Positions 2,557 through 34,650 of a stretch of 42,768 nt of DNA are shown here, piece by piece. The stretch's first letter is position 1, and the number at the start of each line of letters is the position of its first letter. The stretch covers positions 1-42,768 of IMG/VR virus record IMGVR_UViG_2531839663_000008; one strand, given 5' to 3'. A model generated the notes under the pieces. It was not told the origin of the DNA. It saw only the letters and a list, made by a program, of their open reading frames with translations, and searched no databases. The position numbers and the translations under genes are program-made. The DNA comes from a virus. Lineage: Duplodnaviria; Heunggongvirae; Uroviricota; Caudoviricetes.

Positions 2557-3617
2557 GCTGCGACCTCAAAGCTCTTTGCCGTAATAGCTTGGATTAGTCT
2601 CACCGAAGCAGCTTTTTGTGAAGCAACGCTGGCAATAACCGTCGCTCTATCTTTTTCAGTGCTGGCGCAGACACCGGACCAGGATGAAATGAGGAAGAAA
2701 TTCTCCAACTCACTCATAGTGGAATTATTTACTAACTCCTCAATCATCTGCACAATGATGTGTGCAGGGCGATGCCGTAGTAGTTCCTGCATTGCGTAGC
2801 CAAACGCATTGATCATCACCGCGTGGAACTGGATGTAATCCCGCTTATATTCAGCAGGCGTACAACCATGCCTAATTCCCTCGATGGCTGTTAGCTTGAG
2901 CCATGCCTCCCAAATGTCATAGATGTCACTAGTAGCAAGCTCATCCCCATTGACAGAGAATTTTGCAGTTGCATCACTCAGGGGTTTGAAGCTAATCCAG
3001 AGATCGCTTTTCGCCGGAACCACGTTGTGTTCAAAGTCTGTTATTTCTGAGAACACGGCATGGGATGACAAAAACGAAACCATATCTTGAGCAATTTTAT
3101 CCCTACCGTTATAGGCCATATTGATGGCCGCTGATGGCTTCGATACGTTGTTGTTGATGTCGGAAAAGAACTGCTGGCGCGTTTTGAGCGGCAGTTGGTG
3201 TGTCAGCATCATTGGGATGTGAATAGGCTCTCCGTAAGTGCGGCAGAACTCCGCAATGCCTGCGGCGCGATGCTGACCGTCAAACAGTTTAATCTCCGCA
3301 TCCATTGGGAATCGCGCAACACCCACATTCGTATTGCCAAACTCTTCGAACTCAATGAGTGAGTCGCAGTTTCCAACCAGCGGCGGGATGATGAACGGCT
3401 CTTTTTTCTCGTAAGCTGTTCGCAGATACTCATAAAACTTCTTCGCACGTGCTGGATTGAGTTCTCGCTGAGAACGCTCAAGCGTATTGCCGTGGTTATC
3501 TGATGCCAGAACGCGAGTTAGCGCGCGCGCTGGGACTGTCATCATCAACACAACCGTATTTCCCTGTAAGCCTCTTGATGCCGGGAATTCAAAGAAATAG
3601 TCACCAATTTTGCTCAT
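2553..3617 (-). CDS. DGQHR-motif protein (DndB-like, ParB/Srx superfamily)
   Basis: Literal FDGQHRAAG motif in the N-terminal third; start placed at second ATG, which has a GAGGA RBS about 9 nt upstream; stop overlaps the dam start by 4 nt. Confidence 0.6.
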   Translation of the reverse strand: MSKIGDYFFEFPASRGLQGNTVVLMMTVPARALTRVLASDNHGNTLERSQRELNPARAKKFYEYLRTAYEKKEPFIIPPLVGNCDSLIEFEEFGNTNVGVARFPMDAEIKLFDGQHRAAGIAEFCRTYGEPIHIPMMLTHQLPLKTRQQFFSDINNNVSKPSAAINMAYNGRDKIAQDMVSFLSSHAVFSEITDFEHNVVPAKSDLWISFKPLSDATAKFSVNGDELATSDIYDIWEAWLKLTAIEGIRHGCTPAEYKRDYIQFHAVMINAFGYAMQELLRHRPAHIIVQMIEELVNNSTMSELENFFLISSWSGVCASTEKDRATVIASVASQKAASVRLIQAITAKSFEVAA

Positions 3618-3694: not shown

Positions 3695-4123
3695 TCATAG
3701 GATGGACTCCATTTCGTCGATGTAGAGGCCCTGAGCAATCAGGCGGCTACGGCGGGCGGCACGGGCTATGCACTCCTGCCGTCTACCTTCCTGCGATTGC
3801 TCAATGGCGCGCCGGGTGAACAGGCGCGATTTGCCCTGCGGCGTCACAACCTTCGGCTTCGTGACCAGGTCGAAAGTCCGGTCGCAGATGCCGTCCCCGT
3901 TGATCCACTTTTCCGACTCAACGATCTGCGCTATCTGTCCGGAGCCGCGGGTAATACCGTTGGCTACCCGGTTAAACTCGATGAGCGTTACGCCAAACTT
4001 CTCAGCGATTTCGCTGCCGGTTACCGGGCGGCCGCGCGTCTGAATCATCCAGATAACGCGCTCACGAAGGCCGGAGAATTGCCCGGTGCGCCCTGGCCTG
4101 CGGTAAAATGGTGTGCGTTTCAT
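3695..4123 (-). CDS. Hypothetical phage protein (basic, possible HTH)
   Basis: 142-aa ORF in the leftward operon; 4-nt overlap with the downstream exonuclease gene. Confidence 0.45.
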   Translation of the reverse strand: MKRTPFYRRPGRTGQFSGLRERVIWMIQTRGRPVTGSEIAEKFGVTLIEFNRVANGITRGSGQIAQIVESEKWINGDGICDRTFDLVTKPKVVTPQGKSRLFTRRAIEQSQEGRRQECIARAARRSRLIAQGLYIDEMESIL

Positions 4124-5790: not shown

Positions 5791-6762
5791 TCAGTAATGA
5801 ATTTTCGCGCAGGGGATCAGGTCATCTTTCAGAGCGGTAAGCACTTCGATAGCCTGCTCGCGGGTTAAGCTGGTTTGGCTGGTGAGCGCGTTAACGATGT
5901 TGGTGCCGACCGTCTTGCGGTGCTTAACGTCAGCTTCACGCTTTGCCTGCTCATCGGCGAGGCGCTTCTCTTCGGCCAGGCGGGCATCTTCGGCCTGTTT
6001 GGCCTTCAGGCGCTCGGCTTCAACCGCCGCGGCTTTTTCGCGTTCCGCCCGGGCTTCCGCTTCCTGCTTCTCGCGAGCTGCACGCTGTTCCGCTTCGACG
6101 CGCTGGCGCTCCGCCAGTTCAGCGCGGGCTTTCTCTTCGGCTTCACGGCGCGCTGCGGCTTCAATCTCCGCTTTGTGCTTCGCTTCGGCATCGCGGCGGG
6201 CTTGTTCTGCCGCTTCCTGTTTCAGCCGCTCATCACGTTCACGCTGAGCCTGTTCCGCCAGACGGCGCTGCTCTTCGCGGTCACGGTCAAAATCCTTGTT
6301 CATCAGTAGAGCCATTTCGTGGTCCGCTTCGAACTTGGCAGCCAGCTCCTGATCGAACCTGATGTTCATCTCCAGCGCTTCGGCGTGCATCGCGTTCATG
6401 GCTTCTTCAGCCTTAATGCGTTCCTGCTCGGCTTCCCATTCGGTGAGTGGGCGGCGGGTCGCATCGCGCAGCTCGTCGCAGGCATCAACGAATCGCTTAA
6501 TTTCGGCCTCAGCCGGACGCACAGCCTCTTTCAGGCGCTTCAGGTACTCACGGCCCGGCTTTTCGATTGCCGTCTTGCTGCGGGACACCTGCGCTGCCAG
6601 AGAGGCAACACGGTCACGGCCTTTCTTCGTGGACAGGTCCGACACTTCGTTTACAGCCTGGCGGATTTGCTCAAGGTACGCGTCAAGGCCGCCCGCTACG
6701 TAAAGCACTGGGGCCTGTTCCGGCTTGATTTCGATGACAGTTAAGTCCGTTACTTCGCTCAT
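5791..6762 (-). CDS. Coiled-coil protein with low-complexity A/E/R/K repeat region
   Basis: Start placed at internal ATG preceded by AGGAGA RBS; long run of EAxRxAEEK-type repeats gives shadow ORFs in other frames. Confidence 0.55.
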   Translation of the reverse strand: MSEVTDLTVIEIKPEQAPVLYVAGGLDAYLEQIRQAVNEVSDLSTKKGRDRVASLAAQVSRSKTAIEKPGREYLKRLKEAVRPAEAEIKRFVDACDELRDATRRPLTEWEAEQERIKAEEAMNAMHAEALEMNIRFDQELAAKFEADHEMALLMNKDFDRDREEQRRLAEQAQRERDERLKQEAAEQARRDAEAKHKAEIEAAARREAEEKARAELAERQRVEAEQRAAREKQEAEARAEREKAAAVEAERLKAKQAEDARLAEEKRLADEQAKREADVKHRKTVGTNIVNALTSQTSLTREQAIEVLTALKDDLIPCAKIHY

Positions 6763-6832
6763 GGTTTCTCCTGAAATTTGGATGTGCAGATCCCGCCCGC
6801 GTAATGCCAGGCCGAACGGTTGAATAGGGTGG

Positions 6833-7042
6833 TTAGTGCTGGATAGGGTTGCCGTGACCGTCAAGAAGGACGTCAATCACGCAGTCACTGAGTCGGATTA
6901 TTTCTGCGTCAGTGTGCAGGTATACCCATTTGCGCTCCTGAATGACTGCTGAGACGCGATATGTGCGGCCTTCATGCAATGCCATCATGCCGGGCGTGAC
7001 GCACTGGCGAATGAGCGGGGTGGTGCCGTAGTGGTTGATCAT
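6833..7042 (-). CDS. Hypothetical small protein
   Basis: 69-aa ORF; 4-nt overlap with the upstream gene. Confidence 0.4.
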   Translation of the reverse strand: MINHYGTTPLIRQCVTPGMMALHEGRTYRVSAVIQERKWVYLHTDAEIIRLSDCVIDVLLDGHGNPIQH

Positions 7043-7197
7043 GCCTTCACCTCAACCTGTTCCAGGAGGCCAGCGATATTCATCTGTTGGCGGTTCATCG
7101 TCAGCTTTTCACGCGGGTTAGATACCGACGTCAGCTGCCACTCGTTATCGTTGAGCTTTTTGGCGGTGTACTGCTTGCCGTTGTGGGTGACTGTCAT
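7039..7197 (-). CDS. Hypothetical small protein
   Basis: Start placed at internal ATG (MTVTHNGK...) with AAGGTGG RBS upstream; ORF-track start 7239 is probably an over-extension. Confidence 0.4.
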   Translation of the reverse strand: MTVTHNGKQYTAKKLNDNEWQLTSVSNPREKLTMNRQQMNIAGLLEQVEVKA

Positions 7198-7198
7198 C

Positions 7199-7408
7199 TC
7201 ACACCACCTTGAATAAGAACCAGCCCATACCGCACACAATCAGGCCCACAATGGTTATTGCGGAAGACATGCGTACATGGTCAATGGCTAGTTTTGAAAG
7301 TGGCTGGCGATGTTCTTTTTTCGTCAGCGAGTTGATTGCTATGCCGAGCAGAAACGTCCCGACAAACCATAATGCGTATATCTTTAAGCCCAACTCCAAA
7401 TCACTCAT
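7199..7408 (-). CDS. Small membrane protein (two predicted TM helices)
   Basis: 69 aa with two hydrophobic stretches (IYALWFVGTFLLGIAI and AITIVGLIVCGMGWFLF). Confidence 0.45.
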   Translation of the reverse strand: MSDLELGLKIYALWFVGTFLLGIAINSLTKKEHRQPLSKLAIDHVRMSSAITIVGLIVCGMGWFLFKVV

Positions 7409-7542
7409 AAATCCTCTTGGCCTTATCGCGGCGAACGGAACGGTTAATACAAGACTTCAACGCATTTATTCAGTGTTTCAATGGGCGGTGGATGGCCGCC
7501 GGTTTTCATAACTAAGCCGCCTCGGTGAAGCGACTGAGGTAT

Positions 7543-7564
7543 GAAAAAGCCCTCCGGAGAGGGC
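7543..7564 (-). terminator. Intrinsic terminator for leftward transcription
   Basis: GCCCTC-CGGA-GAGGGC hairpin; on the minus-strand RNA it is followed by a U-run (plus-strand AAAAA at 7544-7548). Confidence 0.5.
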
Positions 7565-7575
7565 TATGTGTTTCG

Positions 7576-7716
7576 CTTAATCATTGGGTAAGCCAGAGCA
7601 ATTACACCTGCCACTAATACCCCGTCAGCCAGCATCGACATCAACTTCCCGGTGAAATCGACAGCAATCACCAGGAAGAGGAGGACGCCGATAATCAACC
7701 AGCGCAATTTATCCAT
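7576..7716 (-). CDS. Possible micro-membrane peptide (about 46 aa), absent from ORF track
   Basis: ATG at 7716 abuts the TerB-like stop; translation begins MDKLRWLIIGVLLFLVIAVDF (hydrophobic helix); exact frame and stop not verified. Confidence 0.3.
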
Positions 7717-8141
7717 CAGATATAAGCGTCGAGTGATAACTGAAGAGCCTGAGCGATTTTCTTCAGCTGTTTTTCTTCGTCTTCGCCGATGCCGTCGTTA
7801 TCGGCTACGTCAAGGCACAGGCAGAGCACATCAACTGCGTCTGGAGTACCTGCCACATCTGCAAGTTCGCGCATTGCCTGGGCATTAGCAGAGCGAGGGG
7901 ACGCTTCGTACTGTGCGCGAATGTTGCTGCTCATGCTGGCGATCTCACCTGCGAAAGCAGAGAACGCTGGTTTTGCCTGAATGGTTTTCTCCAGCGTTGC
8001 AATTTCTGACGCATCACAAGTACCGTCTGCATAAGCGATCGAGTAACAGCCCCACACCGTTGCTTCAACTGCGTCGCGGTTTTCCATCTTCTTCACTTCG
8101 ACGATCGCCTTGCGTGCTTTTTTCTTAAACAGTCCGAACAT
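7716..8141 (-). CDS. TerB-like domain protein
   Basis: 141 aa with two YADG/DNDG ... DE.E.K-type repeats resembling TerB; first gene downstream of the leftward operator/promoter. Confidence 0.5.
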   Translation of the reverse strand: MFGLFKKKARKAIVEVKKMENRDAVEATVWGCYSIAYADGTCDASEIATLEKTIQAKPAFSAFAGEIASMSSNIRAQYEASPRSANAQAMRELADVAGTPDAVDVLCLCLDVADNDGIGEDEEKQLKKIAQALQLSLDAYI

Positions 8142-8365
8142 TTGACTACCCTCTTGGTTTAAGCCATCAACTTGATGGCGACATTTGACTTACCGTCAGC
8201 CCCTCGTAAAGAGCTGCTGGTAAATCGTGTTGCCATAATTGCCGCTCCTCCTGAGCCCGCCTATGGTCCGACGCATGGTTTACTGTCGCGCCGTTCGACT
8301 GACCGAATCTCCACTTCGCTGCTGGCTAACTTCGCTCAGCTGTCGATGTTTCGTTTCGATGGGTA

Positions 8366-8443
8366 AATTTAGCGTGATGCTAAATTATGCGCAATAGCAA
8401 AATGCTAAATTGTTGAATGGTTTTATTTAGCGTATTGATTAAT
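8366..8443. promoter_or_regulatory. Left operator array (OL-like) and leftward early promoter region
   Basis: Three sites: ATTTAGCGTGATGCTAAAT (8366-8384, perfect dyad), ATAGCAAAATGCTAAAT (8394-8410), ATTTAGCGTATTGATTAAT (8425-8443). Confidence 0.6.
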
Positions 8444-8525
8444 AAGCGATTAAAAATTTACAGCGAAGGAATTCGGGACGTAAAAAAGCCCGCGCGATGG
8501 CGGGCTTGAGGGGTTTTGCGTGAGG

Positions 8526-9203
8526 TTATGGGATGTTTAGTATTTTGGCATCAACCACAACGCCGATGATTTTGCAGTTTCCATTAATTTCTAGCATTGG
8601 ATATGCGGGGTTAAGGGGCTTTAGGAAGCGTCTGCCGGCATCGATTACAAGCTTCTTAAAGGTCGCTTCGTTATCGCCTTCTAGCTTCGCGACAACCAGC
8701 TTTCCGTTGCGCGGCTCGACTTCAGGATCAACAAGTATCGCTGCTCCCTCGGGTATGCTCAGTCCAGCCGGGGAGGTCATAGAATCCCCTTTAACGTCCA
8801 GCCAGAATGAATCTTCTGAGCAGTCAACAGTCGTGTCATACCAGCGATCTATCGCTCTTCGGTGATAAGGTTCTACAGCTTCCATCCATTGCCCCGCGCT
8901 TACCCAGCTGATTACAGGATAACTTCCTTTTGTCTCGTTCAGTCCTCGAAATGCAACGTTCGAAGGTTCTTCACTGGCGTGTAAAACATCCATCCAGCCA
9001 AAAGGCAGATCAAGCGCAGTTTCAATTTTGCGAGCCATCTTATCGCCGATATTGCGATGAGGGTTTGGTCCCAGTAGCTGGCTAAGCGCAGCCGGACTTG
9101 TCTCGATGAGCTCGGCAAACTGCGCTTTGGTCATTCCAGACTCGTGCTGACGCTTCTCGTACAGCGCTTCCAGGTTGGCTTTTCTGATTTCTTTATTTTC
9201 CAT
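8526..9203 (-). CDS. cI: CI-like prophage repressor (HTH domain plus S24 LexA-like peptidase domain)
   Basis: Start placed at MENKEIRK...; C-terminal half has S24-type layout with a GDSM motif; flanked by operator arrays and divergent from cro-like gene. Confidence 0.8.
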   Translation of the reverse strand: MENKEIRKANLEALYEKRQHESGMTKAQFAELIETSPAALSQLLGPNPHRNIGDKMARKIETALDLPFGWMDVLHASEEPSNVAFRGLNETKGSYPVISWVSAGQWMEAVEPYHRRAIDRWYDTTVDCSEDSFWLDVKGDSMTSPAGLSIPEGAAILVDPEVEPRNGKLVVAKLEGDNEATFKKLVIDAGRRFLKPLNPAYPMLEINGNCKIIGVVVDAKILNIP

Positions 9204-9220
9204 ACCTGCATTGTTACCGC

Positions 9221-9288
9221 TTTTAGCAAAATGATAAATGTGCAAATTGCTAAATGATGCTTGCGTAGTATTTAGCATAACGCTAAAC
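9221..9288. promoter_or_regulatory. Right operator array (OR-like) with divergent PR/PRM-type promoters
   Basis: TTTAGCAAAATGATAAA (9222-9238) and perfect dyad ATTTAGCATAACGCTAAA (9270-9287), same consensus as the left array; lies between cI and cro. Confidence 0.6.
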
Positions 9289-9319
9289 TCCAAATCAAAC
9301 GACTCACCCGGAGACACCA

Positions 9320-9553
9320 ATGAGCACTGAACTACACCGCTGGCGCAAGGCCGCCACTACCGACGAATGGGCGCAGCTCGCAAAGTTGGCTAACACGACG
9401 CCAGGTTACCTGGACCAGATCGCCTACGGAAATCGCCGGGCATCTCCAGAAATGGCATCTGCTATCGAGAAAGGCACGAAGAATTTTCACCGCCAGGCTC
9501 CGGTCCTAAAAGAAAGCCTGGTATTCGCATCGCCGCGTGATACTGCGGCCTAA
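9320..9553 (+). CDS. cro: Cro-like HTH regulator (Cro/YdaS-type)
   Basis: 77 aa; HTH segment TTPGYLDQIAYGNRRAS; GGAGA RBS upstream; divergent from cI across the operators. Confidence 0.6.
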   Translation: MSTELHRWRKAATTDEWAQLAKLANTTPGYLDQIAYGNRRASPEMASAIEKGTKNFHRQAPVLKESLVFASPRDTAA

Positions 9554-9570
9554 CCACGAAAGGGAAAGCA

Positions 9571-10116
9571 ATGCATTCACTTGCGTATCAACAAGGTAAC
9601 AAATTTTCGCCAACGGCGATGATTTACCAGAATCGCCGGGAGCCTGATTCCACGGCGTTAAACATCGATGGGATCCGCGCAGCTGTTCGCGCCTGGGCAG
9701 CTGATTGCCGAAGCCGTGAATTTGTCGCCGCGCTGATCGTGGAAGAGTGGCGGGCGTCCGGCGGAACCGGTCTGGATATCCCGACTGACTCGCACCGCCA
9801 GATGCAGAAAGTGTTTCGATGGATTGATGGCGATACCGAATACGCCGCCAACAACATTCGCCAGCTGGCCCCGGCAATCATGTCGGTCCTGCCGCTGGAG
9901 TACCGAAACCGTCTGGCGCCGCAGAACGACACGATGTCGCTGATCGCCTCTGCGATGAAAGAGTGTGCCGAGGCTAAACAGGCCGTGCTGCTGGACGCTC
10001 CAGAGCATCAGAAGCTCAAAGAGGTAAGCGAGGGTATAGCGTCGCTGTTCCGCCTCATGCCGGAGCAGGTAGGACCGCTGATGACGATGGTTACATCGAT
10101 GCTGGGGGTTATATGA
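9571..10116 (+). CDS. Phage regulatory protein at CII-like position (family uncertain, possibly YdaT-like)
   Basis: 181-aa ORF directly after cro-like gene and before the replication genes. Confidence 0.4.
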   Translation: MHSLAYQQGNKFSPTAMIYQNRREPDSTALNIDGIRAAVRAWAADCRSREFVAALIVEEWRASGGTGLDIPTDSHRQMQKVFRWIDGDTEYAANNIRQLAPAIMSVLPLEYRNRLAPQNDTMSLIASAMKECAEAKQAVLLDAPEHQKLKEVSEGIASLFRLMPEQVGPLMTMVTSMLGVI

Positions 10117-10201
10117 GAGGCACAAGAAAAGAAAAAGCCCTTGAAGCGGTAACTTCAAAGGCCCTTATCACACTGTGTTACGCCAAGTAACGGGAGTAAG
10201 T

Positions 10202-11110
10202 ATGTCAAACACCGCTGAAATAATCAATTTCCCAAATAAAACCGAACAACCGGGAGGTCGTATGGTCGACCTGTCGAACGGGTATACCAAGGTCGCTAAC
10301 GAGATCCAACAGCTTAAGCCTCGCCTGAGACTGTCAGGCCGGGAATGGCAATGTTTTGAGGCGGTGATCTGGCTTACCTACGGCTGGAACAAGAAACAGG
10401 ACCGCGTGACAAATACGGTTATTGCCGAGCTTACGGGCCTGAGCGATACGCATGTATCGGACGCGCTTAAGTCTCTCGCAGAACGCAAAATCATCTTTTC
10501 ACAGAAGCAGGGCATGATGAAAATCGTCGGTGTAAACACTGACCTTTCAGCATGGATTTTAGACAAACCGGAAACGGGAAGAAAATTCCCGAAAACGGGA
10601 AAATCCTTCCCGAAATCAGGAATAACCTTCCCGAAAACGGTAGACACCCAATACAAGAACAAGAACAGTATTAAAAGATCTTCGTCCGAGAATTCTGACG
10701 AATCCTCTGACGCACGTCTGAAGAAATTTTTATCAACTCATCCTGAAGCTGCGGTCTACACACCATCCGGTGCGAAGTGGGGCTCTGCTGAAGACCTCGA
10801 GACAGCTAAGTGGATTTCCTCCAGGGTGAAGCTGATTAACCCAACCTGCAAAGCCCCGGACATGACCTCCTGGTCTAACACTGTTCGCCTGATGCGCCAG
10901 ATAGACAACCGGTCGCACCAGGACATCTGCGCGCTGTATGACTGGGCTAGCAAACACCACTTCTGGCAGACCAACATCCTGAGTCCCGAAAGCCTGCGTA
11001 AGCAGTGGGACAAGCTGACAATGCAGCGTAACGCCGGAGGTGAGCAGCGCGCTGTCAAGCCAGATCTGGACTTCAACAACACTGACTGGGCCTATGGGGT
11101 GATCCGATGA
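10202..11110 (+). CDS. Replication initiation protein, lambda O-like
   Basis: Start at ATG preceded by GGGAG RBS; iteron array lies inside the gene and encodes FPKTG/FPKSG peptide repeats; immediately followed by P-like gene. Confidence 0.75.
   Translation: MSNTAEIINFPNKTEQPGGRMVDLSNGYTKVANEIQQLKPRLRLSGREWQCFEAVIWLTYGWNKKQDRVTNTVIAELTGLSDTHVSDALKSLAERKIIFSQKQGMMKIVGVNTDLSAWILDKPETGRKFPKTGKSFPKSGITFPKTVDTQYKNKNSIKRSSSENSDESSDARLKKFLSTHPEAAVYTPSGAKWGSAEDLETAKWISSRVKLINPTCKAPDMTSWSNTVRLMRQIDNRSHQDICALYDWASKHHFWQTNILSPESLRKQWDKLTMQRNAGGEQRAVKPDLDFNNTDWAYGVIR
10566..10700. repeat. Putative replication origin: four direct iterons plus AT-rich segment inside the O-like gene
   Basis: Repeats with core TCCCGAAAACGG(G), each with internal dyad symmetry (CCCGAAAACGGG), at about 10568-10645, followed by AT-rich DNA. 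Confidence 0.65.
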
Positions 11111-13548: not shown

Positions 13549-13572
13549 AAGGCCCTTAGGGGCCTTTTATTC
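13549..13572 (+). terminator. Intrinsic terminator
   Basis: GGCCC-TTAG-GGGCC hairpin followed by TTTTATT. Confidence 0.6.
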
Positions 13573-16997: not shown

Positions 16998-17687
16998 ATG
17001 AACAGTCAGCAACTGGAATACGTACGTCAGCAGCTCATTGTGGCGACCGCAGACCTCAGCGGGGCGACGAAAGGGCAGCTGGTAGCTTTCGCCGAGAACG
17101 CGCAATTCACCGCGACGGCGCGGAGTCGGGGCCGGAAAAAGGTATTCGACAAGGATAAGCAGCGCATGGTCAATCCTGACGGCCAGCCGATGAGCGGCAA
17201 CCAGTCCCGCGCTAAGGGCTCGTCTATCGCGCTGGTGGGCCCGGTAGAGTACGGGACCGCATCGTGGCGCCGCGCTGTTCTGTCGCTTGAAGACCATCAG
17301 AAAGCGTGGCTGCTATGGAACTATAGCGAGAACGTGCGCTGGTGCTATCAGGTGGAAATCACTCAATGGGCGTGGGCAGAGTTCCGGGAGCAGCTCGGCG
17401 CGAAGAAGGTGGCCGGCAAAACGATGGAGCGCCTGAAGAAGCTTGTCTGGCTCGCGGCTCAGGACGTGAAAGCAGAGCTGGCAGGGCGTGAGACGTACGA
17501 ATATCAGGCGCTGGCGTCGCTGGTTGGCGTAACGCCAAAAAACTGGTCAGAGACCTTTACTGACCGCTGGGTTGAGATGCGCAGCATCTTCCTGCGACTG
17601 GATAGCGGGGCTTTATTGCAGGTTACGCGATCACGTTCACAACAAAAGGCGACAAATTTAGACTCAAGTCTTGCAAAACTGGATTGA
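16998..17687 (+). CDS. Late-gene antiterminator, Q-like (by position; family unverified)
   Basis: 229-aa ORF directly upstream of a strong sigma70-like promoter plus terminators and the lysis cassette. Confidence 0.5.
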   Translation: MNSQQLEYVRQQLIVATADLSGATKGQLVAFAENAQFTATARSRGRKKVFDKDKQRMVNPDGQPMSGNQSRAKGSSIALVGPVEYGTASWRRAVLSLEDHQKAWLLWNYSENVRWCYQVEITQWAWAEFREQLGAKKVAGKTMERLKKLVWLAAQDVKAELAGRETYEYQALASLVGVTPKNWSETFTDRWVEMRSIFLRLDSGALLQVTRSRSQQKATNLDSSLAKLD

Positions 17688-33496: not shown

Positions 33497-34302
33497 TGGG
33501 GATTCTAGACGGCCTCATGCAGGCGCAATCTTCTGGCAAAGATACTGTTAAAAAGGTAGGGATCGGCGGGTTCTCAATGTTTGCCCGAGTGAGCGATGCT
33601 ACTGAATACCCGTCTCAGGTTCCTGTAGACGTGCTGGAGGATGGCAGTAACGCGTCAGACGACATTATCAATGGCCCGCTGACGATAAAAATCAGCGGTG
33701 TTGTTGCCGATATTTTTGTCGATGCGAAACCAAACTCTTCTTTTAGCCTGATGCCAGATTATTCGAAGTATGGTGAGGTGCTGGAGTACATCCCCGCAAA
33801 GACGCAGCAGCAGTTGCAAAAAATGAATGAGATTGCCGACCGCGCAGAGCAGGCCATCTTAAAGGCAAAACGCGTGGCTGATAAAGGAGCCGACCTGTTT
33901 GGGCTGGTGGGCAACCCGTCTACTGGTGGCGCTAAAGGTATACGCGAGCAATTTCTCGACTTCATTGAGGGGGTGTACTACGGCAAGCAGCTTATTTCCG
34001 TGGAGGTGGATTATCGCACCCATGAAAATATGGCGTTAAGCGGCCTGACCATCAGTACCGACAATCAAACGATGGAAACTAAGTTTGAAGCCAGTTTTAC
34101 AAAAATCACCTTCACGCAACTGACTACCGCACCGATTGAGCAGCACTTCAAATCCCCCTCGGCAGCTGCTAAATCAAAAACGGCGGGCGTTGCTAATAAG
34201 GGGGCGCAGACGCCCGCTGATAATTCTAAAAAAAGTAACGGGACCAGCCAGTCAAAATCAGTCATGACCTCGTTAAAAGGGGCGGCGAAATCTTTATTCT
34301 AA
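33496..34302 (+). CDS. Tail/baseplate-associated protein (putative)
   Basis: 268 aa, positional. Confidence 0.4.
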   Translation: MGILDGLMQAQSSGKDTVKKVGIGGFSMFARVSDATEYPSQVPVDVLEDGSNASDDIINGPLTIKISGVVADIFVDAKPNSSFSLMPDYSKYGEVLEYIPAKTQQQLQKMNEIADRAEQAILKAKRVADKGADLFGLVGNPSTGGAKGIREQFLDFIEGVYYGKQLISVEVDYRTHENMALSGLTISTDNQTMETKFEASFTKITFTQLTTAPIEQHFKSPSAAAKSKTAGVANKGAQTPADNSKKSNGTSQSKSVMTSLKGAAKSLF

Positions 34303-34314
34303 TGAGAGCAACGT

Positions 34315-34650
34315 ATGGATCCGATAACCAACATCACTGACGAACCTATCCAGCGGCATGTTCTGATTTTTGACCGTGGTGAGGCTGTGGTCACTATTCG
34401 TTATCTGCCTACGGTTGAAATGTGGAAAATGCGCGTGGAGTACAACGGTGATTACATCGACGGCGTGAAGCTGTCCCTCGGGACGCTACATTTTCGGCAC
34501 AAGAACTGGCCTTTCGACGTTGTGTTACTTTGCGCTGACAATTCCGGCATTGACCCATATCGGGCTGACGACTTCGCCAGTGGTCGCATCGAAATGTATC
34601 TGGTCACGCCGGAAGAGATGATTGATATTCGCGGGGGAGACGTGCCGTGA
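34315..34650 (+). CDS. Baseplate protein (putative)
   Basis: 111 aa, positional. Confidence 0.4.
   Translation: MDPITNITDEPIQRHVLIFDRGEAVVTIRYLPTVEMWKMRVEYNGDYIDGVKLSLGTLHFRHKNWPFDVVLLCADNSGIDPYRADDFASGRIEMYLVTPEEMIDIRGGDVP

Follow-up and report, generated by a model that had tools for sequence, protein, structure and literature searches.

In phage lambda, the slot that follows the leftward early promoter PL is occupied by nutL and N and closed by tL1, and a promoter-proximal RNA signal converts RNA polymerase before the first terminator is reached. Phage phi80 carries nutL, N and tL1A in this position, and in phage HK022 the put RNA replaces N in the lambdoid early operon. HK022 has two such elements, putL, which begins at the 5' end of the leftward transcript and is followed by Nun, and putR in the rightward operon; both were reportedly the subject of work by King et al. 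in 1996, and the put element of phage HK639 is said to be treated in a paper by King et al. from 2011 (J Bacteriol 193:5784). HK022-type put is cis-acting and needs no phage protein, and mutations in the zinc-binding domain of the RNA polymerase beta' subunit, such as rpoC Y75N, block it. A cryo-EM structure has been published for HK022 putL, the RNA of which persists on the polymerase and counteracts intrinsic as well as rho-dependent termination (PMC9378689). For HK639 (GenBank HM208537, feature 34187-34312), we take the functional status of the put allele from its GenBank annotation and its citation in PMC9378689. In phage P1, finally, tciA and tciB are adjacent and overlapping genes that are followed by tciC and surrounded by tRNA genes.

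The DNA that we analysed (the window, 42,768 nucleotides) is, by its sequence relationships, a lambdoid prophage of Escherichia coli related to phi80. Three complete E. coli genomes match positions 7400-8520 at 99.6-99.8% identity, and DH5alpha, which we take to carry phi80 DNA, is among the E. coli genome matches to the prophage. The features of the immunity region and of the leftward operon are collected in the table. The left operator sites overlap the PL promoter, and a candidate intrinsic terminator of good quality lies in the rightward operon upstream of Q (13549-13566, plus strand).

Features of the immunity region and leftward early operon, in window coordinates.
Feature	Position	Strand	Basis or detail
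tL1B-like sequence	7332-7369	minus	37 of 38 bases match the phi80 rho-dependent tL1B annotation
Intrinsic terminator	7541-7565	minus	7565-7548 AGCCCUC-UCCG-GAGGGCU, then UUUUU
tciB, 50-aa hydrophobic peptide (DUF3927)	7564-7716	minus	two predicted membrane segments
tciA, 141-aa TerB-family protein	7716-8141	minus	Pfam TerB, PHROG 632, identity to P1 TciA
Palindrome	8163-8179		GCCATCAAcTTGATGGC, perfect inverted repeat
Hairpin with UACG tetraloop	8187-8226	minus	GAUUUACC-AG-CAGCUCUU-UACG-AGGGGCUG-AC-GGUAAGUC
Leader start, ~47 nt	8314-8360	minus	97.8% identity to the phi80 O-L region; common to phi80 and relatives
Predicted PL promoter	8366-8394	minus	-35 TTGCGC (8394-8389), 17-nt spacer, -10 TAAATT (8371-8366)
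Left operator array	8366-8437		inverted repeats; three ATTTAGC/GCTAAAT sites at ~8366-8386, 8395-8411 and 8425-8437
Terminator of the cI repressor gene	8507-8486
LexA/S24-type cI repressor	8526-9188	minus	Pfam Peptidase_S24 and HTH_3
Second operator array, OR	~9220-9290		ATTTAGC/GCTAAAT half-sites, as at OL
cro-like gene	9320-9553
CII-like gene	9571-10116		PHROG 163
Q	16998-17687		PHROG 304

The position of PL was predicted from its positional homology to the annotated phi80 pL (-10 TTTAAT, -35 TTGACC), and the transcribed sequence of the window is identical to that of phi80 from CCATCGAAACG on. The PL transcript probably starts near 8360. A consensus promoter scan called no promoter-like site at 6800-9700 on either strand and missed PL itself because just 8 of its 12 positions match. 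Measured to the tciA start codon (ATG at 8141), the leader is ~219 nt long from the predicted start and 224 nt long from the operator edge, close to the ~230 nt given by an earlier, first-pass annotation of this DNA. Along the minus strand, PL is followed by the phi80-like leader start, put, the UACG hairpin, the palindrome, a GAGGG ribosome-binding site and the tciA ATG. The leader start folds only weakly (-11.9 kcal/mol, z -1.4), and the homology of the leader to phi80 stops just before the boxA of phi80 nutL.

A megablast search with positions 7400-8520 against phage genomes aligned window 8190-8362 with HK639 34209-34381 at 96% identity over 173 nt, and this part of HK639 contains the feature annotated as 'putL-like antiterminator RNA' and adjoins the putative HK639 pL. 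The likeness takes in ~55 nt of leader upstream of put, the core of the element and the UNCG hairpin, with essentially the same put allele in both phages. A more sensitive search matched leader nucleotides 66-128 to putL of HK022, HK75 and O276 at 79% identity, and putL is annotated at the matching site in HK75 and O276. By this relationship, the segment at 8305-8228 on the minus strand is identified as a put antiterminator RNA of the putL type and the HK639 allele. It lies on the sense strand, ~55-130 nt after the predicted PL start and 660 nt before the terminator. The first-pass annotation had listed a cis-acting RNA element of the HK022 put kind among its options without locating it, and this option proved correct.

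To characterize the element as an RNA, put sequences were gathered from viral contigs by an exact pattern, and 28 distinct putL and putR sequences were aligned. The exact pattern for the put core occurs at one site in the window, with 0 expected by chance. The RNAalifold consensus of the 28 sequences has 14 base pairs, 11 of which show compensatory changes, and the window sequence fits this two-stem structure, made up of a short initial helix and a second stem in two parts. Run with filters off, a covariance model built from the same sequences (R1) gave a single hit in the window, at 8305-8228 (85.6 bits, E 5e-20), and the next-best score was 6.9 bits. We relied on covariation because thermodynamic folding is uninformative for this RNA. 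The fold energy of put alone is unremarkable (z -0.26), in keeping with reports that the RNA must fold co-transcriptionally on the polymerase; according to a published statement, active put forms only while polymerase synthesises the RNA.

The residues that matter in HK022 are likewise retained. HK022 putL is inactivated by mutations in the A3-G7 helix and at U28, G35, G45 and A64, and in its structure G35 is paired with A9 and the contact strand is made up of residues 59-64 (PMC9378689). With HK022 residue n corresponding to window position 8303-n, U28, G35, G45 and A64 fall at 8275, 8268, 8258 and 8239, and in the 28-sequence alignment all four are conserved in the window put, as are the A3-G7 helix, A9 and strand 59-64. 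The sole change in the A3-G7 helix is compensated, A5-U17 being replaced by U5-A17. In this sense, put is directly observed in its identity, placement and orientation and in the conservation of its structure.

Unlike HK022, in which putL begins at the transcript 5' end and is accompanied by Nun and putR, the window has its put element ~55 nt into the transcript and carries neither of the other two. The covariance model found no second copy in the window with filters off, and none in the flanks of HK639 or CobraSix with default filters. Among the viral contigs, 17 had both putL and putR and 19 had putL only, and all nine HK639-type contigs that extend 3 kb or more upstream were devoid of putR, so that putL alone is the rule for HK639-type leaders. 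HK639 resembles the window in having put after PL and in lacking putR and N, but it differs in its immunity region and operators and in the genes that follow the leader, orf45 and orf44 in place of tciA and tciB.

We also looked for the protein and the RNA site that put would replace. A tblastn search of the window with phi80 N, lambda N and HK022 Nun returned nothing below E 2. There is no N-type Pfam match in the window and no N annotation in the near-identical prophage of E. coli EM18-18-42, in line with the earlier statement that no N is recognisable here. The window likewise lacks HK639 orf45 and orf44. Reading the leader by eye revealed no boxA and boxB pair, and the sole boxA-like string, GCUCUUUA, falls within the paired stem of the hairpin at 8187-8226. 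The prophage would do without an N protein because its leftward early transcript carries put RNA.

The hairpin that follows put is very stable (-21.8 kcal/mol, z -5.9) and occurs with UACG, UGCG or CACG tetraloops. It is conserved in HK639, Enterobacter phage ENT1 and further loci (L046, L047, L077, L130 and L137-L141), among which the first gene behind it differs. Homology to HK639 ends at window position 8190, and from the hairpin onward the sequence is common to other tciA-carrying prophages, for which reasons the hairpin marks a module boundary and is probably the crossover point between the HK639-type leader and the tciAB cassette.

The first gene of the operon encodes a protein that the first-pass annotation had described as TerB-like, and the profile search agrees, with a match to Pfam TerB (PF05099) of 31.6 bits against a cut-off of 24.4 (E 2.3e-7). 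The match to PHROG 632, 'tellurite resistance', extends over the full length (residues 1-141, 215 bits). Its identity to P1 TciA, of which it is an orthologue, is 77%, and copies in Klebsiella and Escherichia phages reach 90%; those of its 223 homologues that are named are called tellurite/colicin resistance protein or TerB family. The two TerB-like repeats that had been read into the protein are unsupported, because Pfam recognises just one TerB domain, at residues 27-138, and BLASTP detects no similarity between the two halves; two short acidic DG...E motifs are the sole recurrence.

The hydrophobic peptide encoded next is also real and belongs to the DUF3927 family (PF13064, 53.4 bits), although it has 50 residues rather than the 46 first proposed. 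It also matches PHROG 1470, 'TciB-like', and is a homologue of P1 TciB, with which, as with the TciB-like protein of CharmingMan, it can be aligned by eye. The tciB start codon overlaps the tciA stop codon (TGATG). TciA would be a cytoplasmic protein of the TerB fold and TciB a two-helix membrane peptide, with their translation coupled. The two genes thus have the order and overlap of the P1 pair but, unlike those of P1, they lack tciC and stand first in the PL operon.

Since tciAB lies among tRNA genes in P1 and between Q and the lysis genes in lambdoid phages, as in CharmingMan and Klebsiella phage 5 LV-2017, we regard it as a known mobile accessory cassette. A TerB-like gene in the N slot had been called unusual, and it is indeed uncommon, with tciA directly following PL in 3 of 5426 complete E. 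coli genomes; it is not unique, however, as the arrangement recurs in metagenomic prophages with other immunity regions. There is no promoter-like site between put and tciA, and tciAB is for this reason expected to be immediate-early and not to be expressed in the lysogen. The associated names (tellurite/colicin resistance, cell-division inhibition) are given by homology, even in P1, and tciA may have an exclusion or stress function, as the family annotation suggests. Neither TciA nor TciB matched the PADLOC defence models, and TciA matched no PDB sequence.

The minus-strand intrinsic terminator reported after the peptide gene is present, with a folding energy of -13.9 kcal/mol (z -3.2), and the identical terminator follows tciB in four sibling contigs (L137-L140). 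Its flanks (TAGCC...TTTTTCATACC) match phi80 tL1A while the stem sequence differs, which makes it the positional homologue of tL1A. Everything beyond it is homologous to phi80: a 69-aa ORF (7199-7408), inside which the tL1B-like sequence lies, then kil (PHROG 294) and, further on, gamL, bet and exo. Because the match to phi80 includes both the start of the leader and the flanks of the terminator, the segment with put and tciAB sits where phi80 has nutL and N. More precisely, phi80 carries boxA, a putative nutL core and its 98-aa N where the window has put, tciA and tciB, and the two phages differ in their operators and repressor specificity. The analogy drawn earlier with the N, nutL and tL1 slot of lambda is thus sound, since phi80 carries nutL, N and tL1A between the same boundaries.

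We consider it likely, with a probability of about 0.88, that processive antitermination in the leftward early operon is mediated by put RNA and is independent of N. Upon inactivation of the LexA-like cI repressor, PL would fire and the polymerase would transcribe the ~55-nt phi80-like leader and, after it, the 78-nt put RNA. On the model of HK022 putL, put would fold while nascent into a V shape of two stems, bind the beta' zinc-binding domain of the polymerase that made it and stay attached, rendering this polymerase resistant to pausing and termination. Whereas lambda assembles N with Nus factors, put is expected to act alone on the zinc-binding domain. The modified polymerase would transcribe tciA and tciB, which would be the first products of the operon and not antitermination factors, meet its first barrier at the tL1A-like terminator, and pass both this terminator and the tL1B-like rho-dependent region. 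Read-through would then allow expression of the genes that need it, kil, gamL, bet and exo, and of those beyond.

Two other accounts would dispense with put activity. In one, there is no active antitermination, the terminator being leaky or kil, gam, bet and exo having a promoter of their own, and the put-like sequence is an inactive relic. A stem of 7 bp followed by five U residues is indeed of moderate strength, but phi80, whose operon is the same downstream, maintains N, nutL and two annotated terminators at this place, and the promoter scan speaks against a separate promoter. As for a relic, the lower part of stem II can, on our reading of the sequence, pair without interruption in the window allele (CCAUAG/UUAUGG), whereas HK022 has a bulged U68 in this stem, and deletion of U68 is reported to abolish antitermination in HK022. 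Every HK022-critical residue is nevertheless intact in the window put, and phages that differ in immunity region and downstream genes retain the element at 96% identity, which argues for selection. We therefore consider this account improbable. Still less probable is that an unrecognised protein, TciA or another small early protein, serves as antiterminator in place of N. The gene in the N slot is unrelated to N, and sequence comparison easily overlooks N-like proteins, which are small and evolve rapidly, but the searches with three N and Nun proteins found nothing, and TciA has no arginine-rich motif and no N-type Pfam match. TciA is in addition a full-length member of a family known from P1 and from the late region between Q and lysis of lambdoid phages, contexts unrelated to early antitermination, which disfavours such a role. 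The small ORFs past the terminator are shared with phi80, which has an N of its own.

The first-pass annotation had itself pointed to an 8-bp perfect inverted repeat in the leader (GCCATCAA/TTGATGGC) as the element to test. The repeat is present, 1-2 nt away from where it had been placed (8163-8170 and 8172-8179), ~50 nt downstream of put, and as RNA it would form a 7-bp hairpin ~10 nt upstream of the tciA Shine-Dalgarno sequence; the 45-nt stretch that holds it (8142-8186) folds with -11.6 kcal/mol (z -2.7). Its perfection, its folding and its complete conservation in the four sibling contigs would suit an antiterminator, an attenuator or a protein-binding site. However, it travels with the tciA cassette whichever element stands upstream, being identical in L137-L140, where this element is not put, and it is missing upstream of tciA in P1, CharmingMan and Klebsiella phage 5 LV-2017. 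The palindrome has no U tract and so is not a terminator, and since all copies found are identical it allows no test by covariation. A recurring binding site was rejected as an explanation, as the window holds a single copy and the sequence is restricted to one lineage of the tciA cassette; a match with up to three mismatches is expected in 30 of 100 shuffles. A regulatory role of the repeat in the leader is accordingly very unlikely, and any effect that it has may at most be local, on tciA translation or mRNA stability. The earlier interpretation was thus right in allowing for a put-like element and wrong in the structure that it named, and RNA-mediated antitermination through put remains our preferred reading of the operon.

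Another RNA was encountered at the put position in relatives of the prophage. L137-L140 have a tciA that is 99% identical, and their leader start, their UNCG hairpin, their palindrome and their terminator do not differ from those of the window. The exact position of put is taken in them by an element of ~190 nt, which in L137 lies at 2735-2920 and in which a boxA-like sequence at the start precedes a multi-helix RNA of ~150 nt. This boxA-linked RNA is also found, together with the leader start and the UNCG hairpin, in ENT1 and three complete E. coli genomes, and homologues occur in prophages of Citrobacter, Pseudocitrobacter, Trabulsiella and Enterobacter as well as in an E. coli prophage that encodes an N identical to that of phi80. 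Its consensus, from five sequences of three types, has 45 base pairs, 12 of them compensated, and it has no match in Rfam. We tried the ENT1-type element as a divergent put and rejected this, its best covariance-model score being 1.9 bits, and the model found no put in the carriers of the boxA-linked RNA that were searched. Phi80-type N is absent from the ENT1-group phages and, among the retrieved flanks of L137 and L141-L147 (leaving aside L138-L140 and the ENT1 locus), from all except L142. A tentative interpretation, which we think doubtful, is that the leader serves as a modular scaffold for the exchange of antitermination cassettes, and that the boxA-linked RNA represents a second, undescribed class of cis-acting antiterminator; alternatively, it may be a nut site of the phi80 N family whose N partner is missing or unrecognised. 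Either reading concerns the relatives of the window and not the window itself.

Taken together, the region consists of an HK639-type put RNA and a P1-type tciAB cassette, both of known kinds, and is explained and fairly ordinary. A lambdoid early operon with a terminator but no N seemed to lack a component, and put fills this gap by a mechanism that is known, rare and free of protein. The locus also exposes a gap in annotation: put is present in 126 of 5426 complete E. coli genomes (~2%) and has no Rfam family, an Rfam scan of 6500-10500 with E values up to 10 returned terminator-like chance matches alone, and genome pipelines annotate a spurious hypothetical protein across put on the opposite strand. 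Under an immediate-early, antiterminated promoter, tciAB would offer a convenient setting for probing the function of these genes. Finally, the locus provides a natural example of exchange, in which flanks of the same phi80 type surround nutL and N in phi80 itself and put with tciAB in the window.

In relatives of this prophage, the exact slot that put, the antiterminator RNA of the HK022/HK639 type, fills in the PL leader is taken by a conserved multi-helix RNA with a boxA-like sequence 5' of it, bounded by the same leader start and UNCG-tetraloop hairpin as in the window. The consensus fold of this boxA-linked RNA, built from five sequences, has 45 pairs, of which 12 are compensated, and the RNA neither matched any Rfam family nor showed similarity to put. 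In contigs L137-L140 it is followed 3' by the tciAB genes and terminator of the window. A phi80-type N was not found in most of its carriers; Enterobacter phage ENT1 has a possible N analogue, a 51-aa ORF with a ribosome-binding region resembling that of phi80 N on its 5' side and an intrinsic terminator on its 3' side.

The put element itself recurs in E. coli: of the 5426 complete genomes, 126 carry put-type sequences, and in 32 of these the match spans at least 80% of the 87-nt put query. Among the 25 put places listed from these genomes, 24 have no feature annotated at the match, and at the remaining one a 'hypothetical protein' has been called over it. Such a call, WP_072679098.1, is made in identical prophages on the strand opposite put, and comparable ORFs have been called across the put elements of CobraSix and S9-5. 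The ORF calls in the identical prophages, CobraSix and S9-5 are probably spurious, and probably arise because put has no Rfam family. In the window, as in HK639, the lower helix of put stem II (8233-8266) can pair without a break (CCAUAG/UUAUGG), so that the base corresponding to U68 would be paired, whereas U68 is bulged in HK022 putL, where its deletion abolishes antitermination. Most other put variants retain a bulged base at this position.

Features of the window and its relatives (window coordinates unless a contig is named)
Feature	Position	Strand	Remarks
Terminator-like site	7484-7500	plus	
Second hairpin, 21-nt, imperfect	7503-7523 / 7527-7547		directly beyond tL1A-like terminator
WP_072679098.1, 67 aa, 'hypothetical protein'	~8172-8375 = L011 7209-7412	plus	RefSeq, identical prophages
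UNCG-tetraloop hairpin	8187-8226	minus	-21.8 kcal/mol, z -5.9; very stable
Terminator hairpin, strong	10166-10133	minus	15 pairs; just 3' of CII-like gene
Bidirectional intrinsic terminator candidate, good	13549-13566	both	rightward operon
boxA-linked multi-helix RNA	L137 2735-2920; L010 (ENT1) 3046-3233; L141 4001-4186		variants in L142-L147
51-aa ORF (MPEFEVNHQ...)	L010 (ENT1) 3815-3985		where phi80 has N

Beyond the tL1A-like terminator, both the imperfect hairpin and the terminator-like site are conserved in phi80. The window contains no copy of putR, the second put of HK022. The terminator candidate of its rightward operon lies 5' of the Q-like antiterminator gene (16998-17687), and a terminator is also annotated in the corresponding part of HK639. 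Around the terminator hairpin that follows the CII-like gene, positions 10116-10180 are homologous to an HK639 feature annotated as 'M3-like RNA', which we read as an oop-like antisense RNA.

The UNCG hairpin, whose stem includes the boxA-like string GCUCUUUA, is kept across several PL operons with differing first genes, its loop varying among UACG, UGCG and CACG. It appears to mark the edge of a module, or else to serve in the processing or stabilisation of the RNA.
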